Shown piece by piece: positions 3,299 to 16,279 of a stretch of 64,000 nt of DNA. Each line of letters opens with the position of its first letter. The stretch's first letter is position 1. The notes below the pieces were generated by a model. That model had not been told where the DNA came from and made no database searches. It saw only the letters and a program-made list of their open reading frames with translations. The position numbers and the translations under genes are program-made. This DNA comes from a virus (taxonomy: Duplodnaviria > Heunggongvirae > Uroviricota > Caudoviricetes), in the IMG/VR virus record IMGVR_UViG_3300045988_166199, positions 9,605 through 73,604 of that record, one strand, 5' to 3'.

Positions 3299-4480
3299 AT
3301 GAGCCTTTATGTTATATCAACATTTAGGTTGGTCACAATATTGCCTGTTAAAAGTGGAATTATCGTGAGCGAGCTGAAAGAGCTAATTACCGAATTAGAT
3401 TTTGAACAATGGTTGGATACTGAAGGTATCGTTTATCGACGTGGAGGCGTGAGTACTCGCGGTCGTGAAGTGAATATCAAGGAGTGTCCGGTATGCGGCA
3501 GCTCCAACTGGAAGGTATATTTCAATCTGACCAGTGGCGTCGGTAAATGCTTCGCTGGTGATCATCCCGAAGAGATTCAGTTCAATAAGCTGGTCTTCCT
3601 CAAGCACTACAGCGGTAAATCACGACGACAGTTCGAGGAATATGTGCAGAACGCTCTTCTTTCCCAGGGGTGGGCACCAAAGAAAGAAGAGATAGTGCTT
3701 GCAAGCACAGTCGAGTTAGAGGGACCAGTTGCACTCCCTCGTCATTACGATCTTCCTATAGATGGCCATCTTCCAGACTATCTGGTTGAACGAAATATAT
3801 CGCCTGAAATGGCAAAGTATTTTGACCTACGATACTGCGTCGAAGGCAAGCACGCTTATGTAGATCCGTATACAGATCAGGTTAAAGGACAGATTTTCGA
3901 TATGCGAATACTGATACCGGTTTACGATCTGGATGGGGTAATGAAGACATTTCAAGGACGAGACATTACCGGTACAGCAGAACGCCGCTACCTCTTTCCT
4001 ATGCAGCTTCCAGCTTCAGGTAAGTTTCTCTACAACGGCCACAATGCAGTCGGCAAACAGACTGTAGTTGTCTGTGAGGGGGCGTTCGATGTTATGGGGG
4101 TCAAACGAGCTATTTTTGACGAAGAAACATTACGCGATTACGTGGAACCAATAGGAACGTTCGGGATGCATCTATCTGGTAACACCACTCAGGATGCAGA
4201 AGATCAGTTGGGCGCGTTCCTGACGCTCAAGGCGCGTGGATTACGTAATGTGATCATGATGTGGGATAGTGAAAAGCAAGCTATACGAAACACTATGGCC
4301 GCAGCCAGGCGACTGACCAGTATCGGTCTTAATGTGAAAATTGCATGTTTGGGCGAGGAAGGACTCGACCCCGGCGATGCGACCCCGGGGCAGATTATCA
4401 AAGCCTACTATTGCGCAAAACCTTACTCACGACAGCTTGAACTTTTAAGCAAGGTAAAAGGCATAGCAGCATTAGTTTGA
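3299..4480 (+). CDS. DnaG-like DNA primase (zinc ribbon + TOPRIM)
   Basis: Zn-ribbon CPVCGSS..GKCF; TOPRIM-like VVCEGAFDVMG; start placed at in-frame ATG 3299 preceded by AAAGAAAAACACATG (ORF track starts at 3227). Confidence 0.75.
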   Translation: MSLYVISTFRLVTILPVKSGIIVSELKELITELDFEQWLDTEGIVYRRGGVSTRGREVNIKECPVCGSSNWKVYFNLTSGVGKCFAGDHPEEIQFNKLVFLKHYSGKSRRQFEEYVQNALLSQGWAPKKEEIVLASTVELEGPVALPRHYDLPIDGHLPDYLVERNISPEMAKYFDLRYCVEGKHAYVDPYTDQVKGQIFDMRILIPVYDLDGVMKTFQGRDITGTAERRYLFPMQLPASGKFLYNGHNAVGKQTVVVCEGAFDVMGVKRAIFDEETLRDYVEPIGTFGMHLSGNTTQDAEDQLGAFLTLKARGLRNVIMMWDSEKQAIRNTMAAARRLTSIGLNVKIACLGEEGLDPGDATPGQIIKAYYCAKPYSRQLELLSKVKGIAALV

Positions 4481-7172: not shown

Positions 7173-7239
7173 GCTCTCTGTGTGTCGTTTTTTACGCAAA
7201 TAATGATAGGTAAGCACAAGATTATTTCTGGCGGTAATT

Positions 7240-7710
7240 GTGAAAGCTGATTTGTCAAAAATCCCTTCTATTTCAGGAAATAACGGTTATTCACTTCGTT
7301 GTGAGGAAGTAAAGATAAACGGTGAGTCGGCATATTGCAGCTACTCCGTTTGCCAGCACACCATTCTTGCCTTCAAAGAAAACCGTCTTCCTCGAACGTC
7401 TTTCCAGTCGTGCGCAACCGCTATTAAAGCAGGCAAATGCAAGGCGTTAAAAATGATGGTTGAAGAGATTCGTAAAGGAGAATCTCTGTATTACGAAGAT
7501 ATGACCGCACTCATTAAGGAGGTTGAAGAACGGAATAAACAAGCCAGAACTATAAAACGAAAACGTGACAGTGTAACGATTAATAGCATGGTTAAGAAGA
7601 GCGCCACATCACAAACAGCGATCACTGACGTGTATGCGGCGTTGATTGAAGAAACAACAAAAGAAACACATGAGCAAATCGATCAACATATGGAGGCAAA
7701 ACAACAATGA
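7240..7710 (+). CDS. hypothetical protein (156 aa)
   Basis: ORF preceded by GATAGGTAAGCA motif; stop overlaps ligase start. Confidence 0.45.
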   Translation: MKADLSKIPSISGNNGYSLRCEEVKINGESAYCSYSVCQHTILAFKENRLPRTSFQSCATAIKAGKCKALKMMVEEIRKGESLYYEDMTALIKEVEERNKQARTIKRKRDSVTINSMVKKSATSQTAITDVYAALIEETTKETHEQIDQHMEAKQQ

Positions 7711-9388: not shown

Positions 9389-9677
9389 GAGCAAGTTAAC
9401 TTCTTGGGAATGGTGGTTGGTCACCTATTTCTTAGCGGCCGGAGTCGCATTCGCCTTTTACGTAGGTCAGTTAGTCGTAAAACTGTTGCTGATTAAATTT
9501 GCTAGTCATAAACGTATCGATGATGGTCTGTGGCGTCTTGGCACCCTGGTGGAAACTCGCTACGGGCAACTTAAGGAGAACGAAACCATTACTATCCAAG
9601 CGAAACAATTCACTGCCACCATCACAAGAACACCTAGTCGTAGAGTGGCCTTGATCAAAAAAGTCACAACCGAATAA
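9387..9677 (+). CDS. putative membrane protein (96 aa)
   Basis: N-terminal hydrophobic helix WWLVTYFLAAGVAFAFYVG. Confidence 0.45.
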   Translation: MSKLTSWEWWLVTYFLAAGVAFAFYVGQLVVKLLLIKFASHKRIDDGLWRLGTLVETRYGQLKENETITIQAKQFTATITRTPSRRVALIKKVTTE

Positions 9678-10454
9678 AAATACAATAATAAGTATTTACT
9701 TACCTATCTTTTATGTATAAGATGACTTTGTTTTCGTTGAGACGCGACTGTTTGAACTTAAATACAAGTGCAAACGAAGAAGTCTATCTGGCAGTAGCCT
9801 AATAAGCCAAACACCAGCGAGGTCAGTTTCCAGCCTCGTTACCGAAATGGGACACACTGAGCGAGTGTGATTGCAGAACGCAGGAGGGAACATGAGAGTT
9901 CCCTCCGATGAAGTAACAGAATGGGCGGTCAGTATATTTTCAACTCATATACGACTCCCGGATTCTTAGCCAATGACCGCCCATCCTGTTACGTCATTTT
10001 GTTCAATTATGTCGTTTATACTGGGTTAAAAAGCGGCGACGTAGCCCGGCTGGTATGGTTAGCCAGCACACAACGTTGAGGCCATTACATTTTTATCAAT
10101 TCTAAGGTTCTATTCACAGAGATACCGGCGAGCGTTGATATGTAACATGTTGGGCAAACATTCAATCGGAGTAGTGGCCTCAACGTTGTGAAGACAGGAT
10201 TGTTGTATAGGTTTAACCACTGTTGCCATTAGTGCCTGTTTTCACAACAAATGATTCCATACATCACATTGTATAAATTACAAAGTAGGTGCTGTCCTCA
10301 GAAACATCATCTACTTAAAGATTTTGCCTTCTATTGAGCGAAGTCGAAAACGTCTGGCACTAACGGAAAGTGCCAGTAGCGGTGTGTTTCCTGGCAGAAA
10401 CTAACACCGCCGCGATTGGCACTGTTGAGTAATAAATACTGGCAGTGCTGAATT

Positions 10455-10529
10455 GATGGTGTAGCTCAGCGGTAGAGCAGTTGGCTGTTAACCAACTGGT
10501 CGGTGGTTCGAATCCACCCACCATCGCCA
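10455..10529 (+). tRNA. tRNA-Asn (anticodon GTT)
   Basis: Cloverleaf: acceptor gatggtg/caccatc, anticodon loop ctGTTaa, T-loop ggttcgaatcc, 3' CCA; sequence differs from host asn tRNAs. Confidence 0.8.
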
Positions 10530-10534
10530 ATTTA

Positions 10535-10621
10535 GGGGAGTTAGTCCGTAGAGGTAGCGGGACAGACTGTAAATCTACTGTCATTGCGACTCGGGTGGTT
10601 CGACTCCATCACTCCCCACCA
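10535..10621 (+). tRNA. tRNA-Tyr (anticodon GTA)
   Basis: Acceptor ggggagt/actcccc, anticodon loop ctGTAaa, long variable arm, ggttcgactcc T-loop, CCA. Confidence 0.8.
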
Positions 10622-10625
10622 AATT

Positions 10626-10701
10626 GCCGGTTTAGCTCAGTTGGTAGAGCGCCTGCCTTGTAAGCAGGATGTCAGCGGTTCGAGTCCGTTAACCGGCACC
10701 A
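10626..10701 (+). tRNA. tRNA-Thr (anticodon TGT)
   Basis: Acceptor gccggtt/aaccggc, D-arm tagctcagttggtagagc, anticodon loop ctTGTaa, T-loop ggttcgagtcc, CCA. Confidence 0.75.
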
Positions 10702-10925
10702 ATACAACGATAAGATCATTACGGTTAATCGTCGTTCATGTGCACAATGACTGGTCGAAAGGTAGTGATCTTACCGTTGTGGTGGATTCGCAGACTGATG
10801 CGATAGCTTTCTTGGATGTTAGGGAAATGCGGCCGCAAATCTTCCCTTTCGCGAGCGGTGATCGTCCGTAGTCCTAATTGGCTGCACCGTATGCCGGAGA
10901 TTCAGTACCGGCCACCACAACGGCC

Positions 10926-11012
10926 GGAGAGTAGGGAGCATGGTGCTCAAGCGGTCTTGAAAATCGTCCCATTGTGCAAACGATGATGGTTCGATTCCAT
11001 TACTCTCCGCCA
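10926..11012 (+). tRNA. tRNA-like gene with long variable arm (possibly tRNA-Ser, anticodon TGA; atypical D-arm)
   Basis: Acceptor ggagagt/actctcc, T-loop ggttcgattcc, CCA end; anticodon stem weak and D-loop short, so isotype uncertain. Confidence 0.5.
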
Positions 11013-11167
11013 GACACAGCGTTGAGCGGTTTGGCCTTTTAATCAACTCGATTAAGACTCCGCTAACATAAACCAGACCGCTCAACGCTGTGATTGACAA
11101 TTACGGCAGACGTTCTTAACCATAGCTTGCTAACATCCTAGCAACACTTTTTTTCAGCGCAATATTC

Positions 11168-11190
11168 AAAGGGGCTTCGGCCCCTTTTCT
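11168..11190. terminator. hairpin terminator (bidirectional)
   Basis: aaaggggc ttcg gccccttttct. Confidence 0.5.
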
Positions 11191-12402
11191 TCAAAAAAGT
11201 TTTATAAATTCATAATTCTGGTCAATTAAGGATTCAATACACACCATGCAAAAATCTACATCGTTAAAATCAGGTGTGTAATATTCATCCTCATAACATT
11301 CATTTAGACCTTCAATCAATTTTTCTTTAAAAACTCCCCACGTTTCAATATGAACCATTTCCATATAAGGCGCATGTGTATGTACTTGCAATACATCCCA
11401 GGTGTCTATAACCTCGATCCGCGGCTTGCAATTAATTTTTTCTAAATATGCCCTCCCAGAATTGTAAATTTTCGACATTGATGCCCCAAAACCTGATGGT
11501 TGGTAATGAGTGTAAATGTCATAAATTTTTTGTCCTATTCTAGGGAGTTGAGAAGCATTGGATATTTGTGGCGAATGAAAGTATCGCTCTATGGAAGAAA
11601 ACGCAGAAACATTAACTAGAGTAATCGTATATGGTGCTAAAGTTCTCTCGTTCAAATTTCTACATAAAATAGCAAACCCATGGCTATTAGTCTTTTCACC
11701 GTCTGAGGACATTTTTGCCATGCTGGCTTTAATAACATTCAATTTCGAATGTAAACGAGAAGTGGAAGTCGGTTGATTATACATTTCATCATCATACAAA
11801 CATATATGAAACCCGCCAAGATGACGAAATGAGAACTTGAGTGCTTCTTCCGCAATAACTAATTTATTAATATCTAAAGGAGTAAGTGATACGTTACCTT
11901 GTAAATCATAGCAAGGTTCTAAACATAGAAAGTTTTTCTTCTGCCACACGATCATATTAAAAATAAAGTGTCTAACCAAAGGTGGCCAGTCAGGTGATAT
12001 AAGTACATTGGTAATATCTCCATCAGACAAGTATGACAAGTAACTTTTTAGTTCCGCAGCATATGCCACTAGCTCAGTTCCAGCTTCCCTTGTTGGTGTT
12101 GAAAAATTTTTTAACTCAATAAGAACTAAGGATTCATTCTCTGTTGAATAAGCAACGACATCAGGTCTTAATATCTCAGATTTTGTTGCTGAGATATTCT
12201 CATCATCTGTCATTAAATGTAACAATGTTATGTTCTTTAAACAAAACTGATAACTCTCCTTAATTTTTTTCTCTTCGGGTCTTTTCGGATTAAATTCATT
12301 TAATTTATCAATATTGATGATTGAATTATATAATCCATCTTGATCAGATAATTTGTCAATTATCCAATTTTGCATTTCCTTTTCGCTTAAAAATATTGAC
12401 AC
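11191..12402 (-). CDS. hypothetical protein, downstream partner of Abi-like gene (403 aa; AbiGii-like size; possible PD..(D/E)xK-like motif)
   Basis: Co-directional, 26-bp spacing from upstream gene; AT-rich codon usage; segment ILRPDVVAYS...LVLIELK compatible with a nuclease-type D...ExK motif (inference only). Confidence 0.55.
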   Translation of the reverse strand: MSIFLSEKEMQNWIIDKLSDQDGLYNSIINIDKLNEFNPKRPEEKKIKESYQFCLKNITLLHLMTDDENISATKSEILRPDVVAYSTENESLVLIELKNFSTPTREAGTELVAYAAELKSYLSYLSDGDITNVLISPDWPPLVRHFIFNMIVWQKKNFLCLEPCYDLQGNVSLTPLDINKLVIAEEALKFSFRHLGGFHICLYDDEMYNQPTSTSRLHSKLNVIKASMAKMSSDGEKTNSHGFAILCRNLNERTLAPYTITLVNVSAFSSIERYFHSPQISNASQLPRIGQKIYDIYTHYQPSGFGASMSKIYNSGRAYLEKINCKPRIEVIDTWDVLQVHTHAPYMEMVHIETWGVFKEKLIEGLNECYEDEYYTPDFNDVDFCMVCIESLIDQNYEFIKLF

Positions 12403-12428: not shown

Positions 12429-13295
12429 TTAAAAATCTTGCTTTACTTTATCCATGGTCAGAATTTTGCTAATAATTGAAGATTCAAATCCATCTAAACC
12501 TGAGAGAAAGTTAATTAGCTTTTGGATATGTTGTTCTTTAGGTATAAGTATATATTTTATATCATTGAACTCAAAATCAATGCCAAACTTTGAAAATTTT
12601 GAGCTAATTTTTGCTTTGTCATCAGAAGTGATAACACGCTCCAAACTCAGACTAGGCCATAAATCACCAATAAAAGGAGCTGGCACATAACGCCACTCTT
12701 TCTCGTCTGCATATATATAATTCTCTATTGTTTTATTATCTTTTCGCTCTAGCTTGCCTCTGTAATTTTTCATATAACGCAGTAAATTATATAGATCAGA
12801 ATATTCTGCTTTCAATTTCTCAAACTCTATTCTGTTTTTGGTATCTAAATTTCCTCTAGCCTTCCAAAGCGGCACCAACTTATTTTTAATAAGTCGAATT
12901 CTGGCATTGTATTTAGAAAATATTTCACTACTCTTATTCATATATAGAACTGGGTGTAGACCTTTCTTTTCCGCCCAAGACTTAGTTAGCCCAAGACCGA
13001 ATTCTCCATATTTTCCGCTATGATCTCTGATTTGTGATAGTTTTATGTCACAAAACGATACCATTGGTACTGCAAACCTCCTGCGTCCCCCGACTCCTCT
13101 TATTTCCTCGCGAGCAAGAAATGGTTTAAAATATTTCTCAGCCAATATGCTATAGAAAGCATCTTCGTTTTTTGTAAAATGAAACAACGTGGTTGGATGA
13201 AGACTATAAACAGATTCAACATTCGCATCAGGATTTTCAAGGATAGTCATTTTACACCTTGTGGAAAGCCAGTTTAGTTCTGTAAATAGTATCAC
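12429..13295 (-). CDS. abortive-infection-like protein (AbiGi-like, 288 aa)
   Basis: Motifs LFHFT, VPMVSFCDIKLSQ, YGEFGLGL.K.WAEKKGL.PVLY resemble AbiGi-type proteins as recalled from memory; AT-rich; first gene of a two-gene operon. Confidence 0.55.
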   Translation of the reverse strand: MILFTELNWLSTRCKMTILENPDANVESVYSLHPTTLFHFTKNEDAFYSILAEKYFKPFLAREEIRGVGGRRRFAVPMVSFCDIKLSQIRDHSGKYGEFGLGLTKSWAEKKGLHPVLYMNKSSEIFSKYNARIRLIKNKLVPLWKARGNLDTKNRIEFEKLKAEYSDLYNLLRYMKNYRGKLERKDNKTIENYIYADEKEWRYVPAPFIGDLWPSLSLERVITSDDKAKISSKFSKFGIDFEFNDIKYILIPKEQHIQKLINFLSGLDGFESSIISKILTMDKVKQDF

Positions 13296-15175: not shown

Positions 15176-16279
15176 ATGAAAAATAGCTTTGACAGAGCAC
15201 GCGCTGCGGAGAACACCTCAAAAGAGGCGATTGAGTATCTCGAAAGAGCATCTCAAATGCAGGCCGTTATGATCTCCCAGGTCAGCAATGACATGAGATT
15301 CTCGGACGCATTCATGTTATTCACTCGCTTATCTCTGCTGATAACAAGACGTCGGCCAGAGATCGCTGTTCATTGTATTTTGATACATGTTTTGCCGCAC
15401 ATTGCCGATGTAAAAGTAAGTGATATTAATAGGTTCATGGTGAACCAACTGGTCAACCCACTAATACTGGATGGCAAAATTGTTATGGGTCGCCGCGTTT
15501 TCTCTCTGATGAAGCAGTTCCTCAGCTGGTGCGCCTTCCAGGGGATGATCGACGTGTCACCGTTAAACGATATGTCACTTAACAAAGTTGCCGGTGGCGC
15601 AAAGCCCACACCTCGCGAGCGGAAGCTGACCGACGCAGAGGTATGGGTGTTCTGGAATATATGGGACTACTTCAATGTGTGTGCTGGTACAAAATGGGCG
15701 GCCAGGCTATGTCTTGTATCCGCAAGACGACCTGACGAAGTACTGCGGGCTAAAAAAAGTGAGTTCAATCTTAAGCGTGGGGTTTGGAATCAAGGCAAGA
15801 GGAACAAATCTGCCCGTGAGCATTCTCTGCCTTTAAGCTCATTAATGCGCACATGTATTGAAGAGTTGTTCGAATATGGTAAAGACAGCCAGTGGCTCGT
15901 GCCTTCGAATAAAAAAATCGGGAAAGACCTTCCTATGTCTAAAGTGGCAATAGCCCAGGCATTACGTCGTATTCTGGAACGACCAGAACTGATGGAGCTT
16001 GAGCCATTTACACCCCGAGATTTGCGCCGTACTGCGCGTAGTTACTTCCCAGCATTAGGCATAAGCCAGGAGGTATCACGTAAAATCATGAACCACAGTC
16101 TTGAGGGGATAGATCGGGTCTACGACCGGCACGATTATATGGACGAGATGCGAGACGCCTTAGAAAGTTTCTCGACGTACATCGCATCAATCGTAGAGCA
16201 ACCGGATTTAGACGAAATTGACCACAAATTTAAGGGAGATCGTCTATCAACAGAGCTTATTCGTGTAAATTTTTCATAG
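15176..16279 (+). CDS. tyrosine-type site-specific integrase
   Basis: C-terminal catalytic motifs: R in LVSARRPDE, RDLRRTARS box II, NHS...RVYDRHDY with tyrosine nucleophile; lacks a recognisable P4-type N-terminal arm-binding domain. Confidence 0.8.
   Translation: MKNSFDRARAAENTSKEAIEYLERASQMQAVMISQVSNDMRFSDAFMLFTRLSLLITRRRPEIAVHCILIHVLPHIADVKVSDINRFMVNQLVNPLILDGKIVMGRRVFSLMKQFLSWCAFQGMIDVSPLNDMSLNKVAGGAKPTPRERKLTDAEVWVFWNIWDYFNVCAGTKWAARLCLVSARRPDEVLRAKKSEFNLKRGVWNQGKRNKSAREHSLPLSSLMRTCIEELFEYGKDSQWLVPSNKKIGKDLPMSKVAIAQALRRILERPELMELEPFTPRDLRRTARSYFPALGISQEVSRKIMNHSLEGIDRVYDRHDYMDEMRDALESFSTYIASIVEQPDLDEIDHKFKGDRLSTELIRVNFS

Follow-up and report, generated by a model that had tools for sequence, protein, structure and literature searches.

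The window analysed here, the whole 64,000-nucleotide (64-kb) stretch of the IMG/VR virus record IMGVR_UViG_3300045988_166199, carries a cluster of four transfer RNA (tRNA) genes, and comparison with its relatives identifies the fourth as a real, conserved serine tRNA of non-canonical build. We read the locus as the tRNA operon of an SSU5-like phage-plasmid of Escherichia coli, with a working tRNA-Ser of the (8/4) class (8-bp acceptor stem, 4-bp T stem) and a cluster that would serve codon supply, and we give this reading a probability of about 0.6. The four genes were all called by ARAGORN and are listed below with their scores on the general tRNA covariance model (RF00005) or on a model of the tRNA-Ser family.

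10455–10529, + strand: tRNA-Asn (GUU), canonical, CCA encoded; RF00005 75.5 bits
10535–10621, + strand: tRNA-Tyr (GUA), class II; RF00005 32.9 bits
10626–10701, + strand: tRNA-Thr (UGU), canonical, CCA encoded; RF00005 74.9 bits
10926–11012, + strand: tRNA-Ser (UGA), assigned to the (8/4) class; family covariance model 103.6 bits; also called tRNA-Ser by PGAP

ARAGORN detected exactly these four tRNA genes in the whole window, all on the + strand, and their positions, together with the 224-nucleotide (nt) gap between tRNA-Thr and tRNA-Ser, confirm an initial annotation made from the sequence alone. The tRNA-Asn, tRNA-Tyr and tRNA-Thr genes pass RF00005 at its gathering score of 29 bits in an Rfam scan.

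Structure and class of the tRNA-Ser gene

The tRNA-Ser gene can be folded into a cloverleaf with an 8-bp acceptor stem (GGAGAGUA/UACUCUCC), a 4-bp D stem (GAGC/GCUC) with a 5-nt loop (AUGGU), a 5-bp anticodon stem in which two pairs are G.U, the loop CUUGAAA with the serine anticodon UGA, a variable arm of 6 bp plus GCAA, a 4-bp T stem (AUGG/CCAU), G73 and an encoded CCA end. The initial annotation had described a long-arm tRNA with perfect acceptor and T arms, CCA, an unusual D arm, a weak anticodon stem and possibly a UGA (Ser) anticodon, all of which is borne out, the D arm being unusually short.

On RF00005 the gene gave no match at the gathering score, and none was listed at E ≤ 10 in a scan that drops lower-scoring overlapping matches within one clan. 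The long variable arm does not explain this failure, since the class II host controls reach 57.5 bits (serT) and 53.4 bits (tyrU) with the same model. The top Rfam match of the gene, and likewise of its relatives, is the selenocysteine tRNA model RF01852 (tRNA-Sec; 42.3 bits, E = 6e-7), and on this match one could argue for a selenocysteine tRNA or a stop-codon suppressor. We rejected this identity, whose probability we consider close to nil: the score lies below the RF01852 gathering score of 47 bits, the UGA anticodon reads the serine codon UCA whereas a UCA anticodon would read the UGA stop codon, the acceptor and T stems add up to 12 bp (8/4) rather than the 13 bp (8/5) of bacterial tRNA-Sec, and all relatives carry sense serine anticodons.

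Relatives of the gene were retrieved by BLAST from 208 phage records and 577 plasmid records, and further members came from a pattern scan of IMG/VR. The carriers include P7, D6, rV5-like phages, Klebsiella phage-plasmids, lytic Klebsiella phages, and Pseudomonas and Streptomyces phages. With a covariance model made from 14 members the family stands clearly apart: members reach 61–108 bits (103.6 for the window copy), canonical serine tRNAs no more than 58 bits and host serT 47.9 bits. The refuting condition proposed with the initial annotation, failure on all tRNA covariance models, would have misled: the gene fails the general model but scores highly on that of its own family, and failing the general model is no evidence against a tRNA.

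In an alignment of 30 members, 95.6% of cells are standard pairs compared with 75.7% in shuffles, both sides have changed in 21 of 27 pairs, and compensatory changes reach all five helices; when partners are slid by one to three columns, pairing falls to 38–58%. The 4-bp D stem, which closes a loop of 4–6 nt, covaries at four of four pairs, and the variable arm shows both-side changes in three of six, with a compensated C-G to U-A change between the window and the P7 and Cyrano copies. Every one of the 30 anticodons is a serine anticodon (UGA, AGA or GGA). The first acceptor pairs, scored in 29 distinct sequences, are G1-C72 (28/29), G2-C71 (29/29) and A3-U70 (29/29); position 73 holds G or U and the variable arm is long; U33 and A37 in the anticodon loop and the T loop UUCGAUU are kept, and CCA is encoded in most members. 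Furthermore, in five phage arrays (L122, L121, L137, L126 and L018), which hold 7 to 25 tRNA genes in the DNA fetched, no UCN reader other than the family member was called. On the strength of the model separation, the covariation, the serine-only anticodons and this position as sole UCN reader, the fourth gene is, as far as sequence can tell, a real and conserved serine tRNA. The earlier call of "possibly Ser-TGA" was thus right about serine, while its uncertainty is removed by the anticodons, the first acceptor pairs, position 73 and the long variable arm.

The same gene could be taken for a decayed or non-translational tRNA-like relic, be it as a pseudogene, as a site of recombination or as an RNA with a regulatory role. 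Such a view could point to the failed RF00005 search, to tRNAscan-SE leaving the amino acid uncalled in the D6 record and the P7 record leaving the gene unannotated, to a minimum-energy fold of the window allele that is not a cloverleaf, and to two acceptor-stem mismatches in a copy from an Acinetobacter phage. We regard it as very unlikely, given the compensatory changes that each of the five helices shows among 30 members of distant phages, the preserved serine anticodon, U33/A37 context, T loop and mostly encoded CCA, and the role of only UCN decoder called in several arrays; the 8/4 cloverleaf is also at most 2.4 kcal/mol from the minimum energy.

We place moderate confidence in the division of the acceptor and T stems into 8 bp and 4 bp (a 12-bp arm), as judged by covariation. 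Pair 8:65 is AU in 25 family sequences, GC in three and UG in one, is unpaired in none and has changed on both sides in four; the rival pair 49:65, which would give a 5-bp T stem, is GU in 25, GC in three and mismatched in one, with no both-side change. The informative sequences are those of three lineages with G8 and C65 and one with U8 and G65, where G49 and G65 cannot pair. The 8/4 fold is favoured over 7/5 because 8:65 covaries without failure, whereas 49:65 shows one-sided changes only and one failure. Nearest-neighbour energies for the window gene are −28.3 kcal/mol for the 8/4 cloverleaf and −24.9 kcal/mol for the 7/5 form, a difference of 3.4 in favour of 8/4. A fifth D-stem pair (A-U), which leaves a tetraloop, forms in rV5, Percastrophe and AM_K4 but not in Klebsiella; in the window gene it would leave a loop of only 3 nt. 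Across the family the D loop reads A/N-UGG-Y, with a pyrimidine after GG.

By its predicted fold, the gene matches the "(8/4) tRNA-Ser" as described in the text of Mukai et al. (2017, Nucleic Acids Res 45:2776, PMC5389517), who came upon this class among false positives of a tRNA-Sec model and report it from bacteriophages, proteobacteria and rumen Clostridia. According to a review, (8/4) allo-tRNAs are serylated, translate and insert serine in E. coli (PMC7609411). In the literature that could be searched, no paper places the P7, D6, rV5 or SSU5-like gene in this class. The rV5 record states that its copy was "discovered using ARAGON", and a D6-like plasmid has been listed with Asn, Thr, Ser and Met tRNAs (PMC6799933).

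Several related genes are worth recording in their own right. The P7 reference record AF503408 leaves unannotated a tRNA-Ser gene at 72257–72343 (L003 1501–1587) that is 96.6% identical to the window copy. Acinetobacter phage vB_AbaM_phiAbaA1 (L011 579–667; KJ628499 ~7199–7287) has an 8/4-type Ser(UGA)-like gene that scores 66.8 bits on the family model, was missed by ARAGORN and is unannotated; it is the copy with two acceptor-stem mismatches and may be decaying. Between their Ser and Thr genes, rV5 (L004 1690–1788) and JEP1 (L012 789–887) have a tRNA-like gene of 99 nt. ARAGORN assigns it a four-base anticodon (atcc), the rV5 copy scores 35.5 bits on RF00005, and the gene could have an enlarged anticodon loop or an intron.

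Codon use, the tRNA-Tyr allele and the role of the cluster

E. coli plasmids of ~112 kb, e.g. pEc2-51408, match the region at 100% identity, and on such identical plasmids in RefSeq PGAP has already annotated tRNA-Asn, -Tyr, -Thr and -Ser over the same spans. The neighbours of the cluster encode a DnaB-like helicase, a primase, an ATP-dependent ligase, an integrase, a CobT-related protein and DnaE, and phage SSU5 has a homologous segment. Because of this gene set and the SSU5 segment, the window is on sequence grounds an SSU5-like E. coli phage-plasmid, and the cluster is element-encoded, as had been proposed. The tRNA block is mosaic, with Thr and Ser close to the copies of phage P7 and Tyr (92% identical) close to that of phage rV5; tRNA-Asn is 98.7% identical to the Cyrano copy. 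Among relatives the tRNA content also varies: SSU5 carries only Asn, Cyrano is without Tyr, and in one P1-like contig Arg(UCU) replaces Asn.

The genes were also said to differ from host tRNAs, and indeed their identities to the MG1655 isoacceptors are 65% for Asn (asnT), 70% for Tyr, 80% for Thr (thrU) and 61% for Ser (serT). The seven-base anticodon loops of all four are those of the host (Asn CUGUUAA, Thr CUUGUAA, Ser CUUGAAA).

The element is AT-richer than its host (44.9% GC in the window, 51.6% in the host sample). Comparing 50 open reading frames (ORFs) of the window with 38 of MG1655, ACA is enriched 2.30-fold and UCA 2.10-fold relative to E. coli, ranking second and third of all codons, and per 1,000 codons Asn is used 47 times against 34 and Tyr 34 against 23 (~1.4-fold). 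The over-used ACA, UCA, Asn and Tyr are the four tRNA specificities of the cluster, which makes codon and amino-acid supply the best-supported role. In E. coli K-12, tRNA-Thr(UGU) and tRNA-Ser(UGA) are each encoded by one gene.

We infer that the four co-oriented genes are expressed as one transcription unit, that host seryl-tRNA synthetase (SerRS) would charge the fourth tRNA through its long variable arm, G73 and the family-conserved G1-C72, G2-C71 and A3-U70 pairs, and that this tRNA would read UCA and related UCN codons. For an element that over-uses ACA, UCA, Asn and Tyr codons, the selected function of the extra decoders would be to keep its translation unlimited.

The initial annotation counted three canonical tRNAs, which holds for Asn and Thr but not for Tyr. 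This class II tRNA, common to rV5-like phages, is present here as a rare allele that appears to fold poorly: relative to the allele of most plasmids and of rV5, a GT to AC change at tRNA positions 28–29 (window 10562–10563) breaks two anticodon-stem pairs, G28-C44 and U29-A43, and Rfam flags two non-standard pairs in that stem. Of 272 E. coli plasmid records, only 6 carry the allele at ≥99% identity. A sequencing error is excluded, since five records from cattle, pigs, a human and a chicken match the 701-nt cluster query at 99.9–100%. The common allele folds into a perfect cloverleaf of −29.2 kcal/mol, whereas the cloverleaf of the window allele reaches −20.5 to −21.9 kcal/mol against a non-tRNA minimum of −29.5 (about 8 worse), with a predicted anticodon-stem pair probability of about 0. 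In this fold, which excludes modifications and magnesium, the window tRNA-Tyr is probably a weak or failing tRNA.

A number of points weigh against reading the locus as a codon-supply operon with an (8/4) tRNA-Ser. The most enriched codon of all is AUA (2.57-fold), and ARAGORN found no AUA-decoding tRNA in the window. For codon use, the ORFs compared are heuristic and the host is represented by only 50 kb. The Tyr gene, which looks defective, would not be under strong selection in this lineage. A scan of the + strand from 9600 to 11400 found no sigma-70-like promoter. The choice of 8/4 over 7/5 turns on variation at position 8 or 65, seen in about three independent lineages. Finally, codon supply does not explain why so many phages keep a non-canonical serine tRNA architecture.

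It is on this last point that an anti-defence role gains ground, in which the main purpose of the tRNAs would be to stand in for host tRNAs that tRNA-targeting defences or toxins destroy during infection or induction, with the divergent bodies and the 8/4 fold of tRNA-Ser making them poor substrates. The initial annotation had suggested that the genes offset tRNA depletion or cleavage. There are precedents: T5 tRNA-Tyr rescues infection from the retron-Eco7 PtuAB by abundant supply and tRNA-Lys of the T5-like phage SP15 rescues phages from PrrC170 (PMC11555353), while a T5 tRNA-Lys variant escapes PARIS (PMC11464382). The tRNA bodies are, moreover, just 61–80% identical to their host isoacceptors, and the Ser architecture is conserved in very different phages, which supply alone leaves unexplained. 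On the other side, we looked for anticodon-loop escape mutations and found none, the four loops being those of the host and without the loop mutations that van den Berg et al. 2023 (PMC10264068) put forward as a signature. Tyr, the sole one of the four specificities with a documented defence target in the cited papers, is damaged in this lineage; the four specificities follow the element's own codon bias; and the cited papers describe no nuclease evidenced in E. coli against Ser(UGA) or Thr(UGU), cleavage of Ser anticodons being reported in mycobacteria by one of them (PMC10264068). Two further candidates were dropped: PARIS cleaving tRNA-Asn or tRNA-Thr, as a term search of the PARIS paper found neither mentioned, and bacterial Schlafen as a class II tRNA nuclease, whose reported targets are Lys, Met, Ala and others, not Ser or Tyr. 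The unchanged loops, the damaged Tyr allele and the codon-bias fit make anti-defence our second choice after codon supply; it is possible, at odds well short of even, but not the best-supported reading, and the two roles are not mutually exclusive.

Other AUA-related genes were seen among phages. P7 and D6 carry a gene with a CAU anticodon, annotated as tRNA-Ile in the P7 record, and two phage arrays include UAU-anticodon tRNA genes of 91–92 nt (IMG/VR contigs L111 2342–2432 and L022 4469–4560), which could be long-arm AUA readers or serine-inserting allo-tRNAs.

Hairpin modules and surroundings of the cluster

The four tRNA genes are co-oriented and lie downstream of a block of replication and ligase genes. 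In the ~1.3 kb around them there are only short mechanical ORFs of ≤95 aa, and RefSeq annotates no coding sequence there. The stretch contains three related hairpins and a shorter GC hairpin.

10069–10190, + strand: hairpin H1, 20-bp stem CACAACGTTGAGGCCATTAC / GTAGTGGCCTCAACGTTGTG, 82-nt loop; inverted repeat I3, 95% complementary
10699–10785, + strand: hairpin H2, ~24-bp stem, 39-nt loop, beginning inside the tRNA-Thr CCA end; inverted repeat I2
11015–11092, + strand: hairpin H3, 20-bp stem CACAGCGUUGAGCGGUUUGG / CCAGACCGCUCAACGCUGUG; inverted repeat I4, 95% complementary
11168–11192, strand not assigned: terminator-like GC hairpin AAAGGGGC-UUCG-GCCCCUUU, then UCUUC; fold −13.6 kcal/mol, z −3.6

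H1 (−47.8 kcal/mol, z −5.9) is situated ~265 nt upstream of tRNA-Asn and has a homologue in phage SSU5, upstream of its single tRNA-Asn, with compensated stem changes. H2 (−32.6 kcal/mol, z −4.8) is the only exact match to CAACGNTNAG N40–70 CTNANCGTTG in the window, where none is expected, and the rest of the Thr–Ser spacer (10786–10925) has no unusual structure (z +0.35). H3 (−41.2 kcal/mol, z −9.8) begins 3 nt past the tRNA-Ser CCA and is kept after tRNA-Ser in Cyrano and in Klebsiella phage-plasmids. The arms of all three are related, and the exact arm motif ACAACGNTNAG, with one mismatch in H3, occurs without mismatch nowhere else in the window.

The number of these modules varies among near-identical plasmids, where H2 may be present or absent, giving Thr–Ser spacers of 8, 224, 319, 446 and 490 nt. 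As ACAACGNTNAG...CTNANCGTTGT, 72–120 nt long, the module adjoins tRNAs in three unrelated groups of temperate phages, SSU5-like, P1-like and epsilon15-like (further instances are L146 7619–7690, L003 1264–1355 and L005 1353–1443), and in epsilon15-like prophages such as phiV10 and TL-2011b its 3' arm overlaps the 5' end of the phage tRNA-Arg(UCU) by 2 nt. A tRNA lies within 10 nt for 102 of 119 module instances in viral contigs, 90 of these coming from one lineage. Read in tRNA-sense orientation, 18 distinct arm variants have both-side changes in 10 of 19 pairs, although instances were pre-selected for complementarity and the paired fraction is therefore inflated. These variants contain 22 pairs of G.U type but only 4 of A.C type, which suggests that the stems are selected as tRNA-sense RNA.

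Rfam, searched with the hairpins and the spacer at E ≤ 10 and E ≤ 5, returned no known RNA family. We rejected the modules as integron attC sites, as their ends CACAAC...GTTGTG deviate from RYYYAAC/GTTRRRY at a mirrored position. The window integrase (15176–16279) fits no integron-integrase model, its only match being a generic integrase domain at 33.9 bits, where the cutoff is 434, and the modules also occur in phages with unrelated recombinases, which counts against the attC reading as well. Nor do H1–H3 resemble intrinsic terminators: their stems of 20–24 bp are of mixed sequence, their loops measure 38–82 nt, there is no T run, and none was listed in a terminator scan.

The long hairpins beside the tRNA ends most likely serve at the RNA level, to process or insulate a polycistronic precursor, and the modules would likely also be recombination joints. 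Both ideas can be combined into a wider proposal, in which tRNA genes of enterobacterial temperate phages move and are expressed as cassettes joined by an undescribed hairpin module, ACAACGnUnAG...CUnAnCGUUGU, acting in RNA as a processing or insulating element (e.g. an RNase III-type site) and in DNA as a joint for gain, loss and swapping among P1-like, SSU5-like and epsilon15-like phages, with the 8/4 tRNA-Ser kept by escaping some tRNA-targeting toxin. As a whole we hold this proposal to be improbable.

Some module loops contain T-arm-like minihelices (e.g. AGGGTTCGAATCCCT, CAGAGTTCGACTCTCTG), as in D6 (L002 ~4105–4200), L139 ~1160–1240 and L214 5618–5697, and these may be tRNA gene remnants. 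More inverted repeats were found in the ORF-poor leader before tRNA-Asn (9908–9997 and 10185–10423), namely I1 (24 nt at 92%), I5, I7 and I8, and no promoter-like site was found in this leader (9908–10423).

The GC hairpin at 11168–11192, with its U-rich tail, is probably the 3' end of the tRNA transcription unit. It was not listed in a consensus terminator scan, and it is convergent with a minus-strand 403-aa ORF whose stop is at 11191. This ORF (11191–12402, − strand) is the partner of an AbiGi-family protein (12429–13295, − strand; Pfam 4.8e-25, PADLOC 5.3e-47), and directly downstream of tRNA-Ser the two may form an abortive-infection pair, which is absent from that place in phage Cyrano. 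The 403-aa partner has no family match in Pfam, PADLOC or NCBIfam, and an AbiGii/MenT-like tRNA-modifying toxin linked to the adjoining tRNA-Ser was dropped as unsupported, the partner matching no family.

Comparison with known systems

The cluster is largely an ordinary phage-plasmid tRNA operon, already annotated in RefSeq, with one odd member from a published non-canonical class. The new points are modest: a class assignment for well-known enterobacterial phages, a defective-looking Tyr allele and a tRNA-associated hairpin module. For annotation, a gene left unannotated in P7, uncalled in D6 and rescued by ARAGORN in rV5 now falls into a defined non-canonical class, and (8/4) tRNA-Ser would be a common feature of rV5-like phages and of the clinically widespread phage-plasmids of E. 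coli and Klebsiella (577 plasmid records). In E. coli, these provide tractable systems for studying why the (8/4) architecture is kept by phages. The practical consequence for the window itself is small, being a putative codon-supply operon in which one member looks damaged.

As far as the (8/4) tRNA-Ser genes are described in the text of Mukai et al. (2017), the window gene resembles them in its 8-bp acceptor stem, 4-bp T stem, long variable arm, G73/U73, compact and perhaps Sec-like D arm and serine anticodon, in its occurrence in a phage tRNA cluster and in its sub-threshold match to tRNA-Sec. The carriers differ, those in the description being metagenomic contigs (marine, alpha-proteobacterial phages) whereas ours include the cultured P7, D6 and rV5-like phages and SSU5-like elements. 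Their D arm is given as a long stem with a tetraloop and pyrimidine 20, whereas that of the window has either 4 bp with a 5-nt loop or 5 bp with a 3-nt loop.

Bacterial tRNA-Sec (RF01852) shares with the fourth gene an extended acceptor stem, a short D loop and a long variable arm, and differs from it in anticodon (UCA, not UGA) and in its 13-bp rather than 12-bp arm. E. coli serT, the host tRNA-Ser(UGA), has the same loop CUUGAAA, G73, CCA, G1-C72, G2-C71 and A3-U70 pairs and a long variable arm; at 61% identity, it differs in its canonical 7/5 arm, 3-bp D stem and large D loop.

The tRNA genes of P1 and P7, which belong to the C1-controlled ban operon, are close in sequence, with the window copies 100% (Thr), 89.5% (Asn) and 96.6% (Ser) identical to those of P7, and P7 also has hairpin modules between Thr and Ser. 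However, P7 has a P1-like backbone where the window is SSU5-like, is without a Tyr gene and carries the CAU-anticodon tRNA annotated as tRNA-Ile. Hairpins processed by RNase III adjoin tRNA or rRNA genes, as is the case downstream of metY in the metY-nusA-infB operon of E. coli. The modules described here are similar to these in their ~20-bp stems placed directly beside tRNA ends and in the polycistronic transcript, which is predicted in our case, but they do not resemble known sites in sequence and match no Rfam family.

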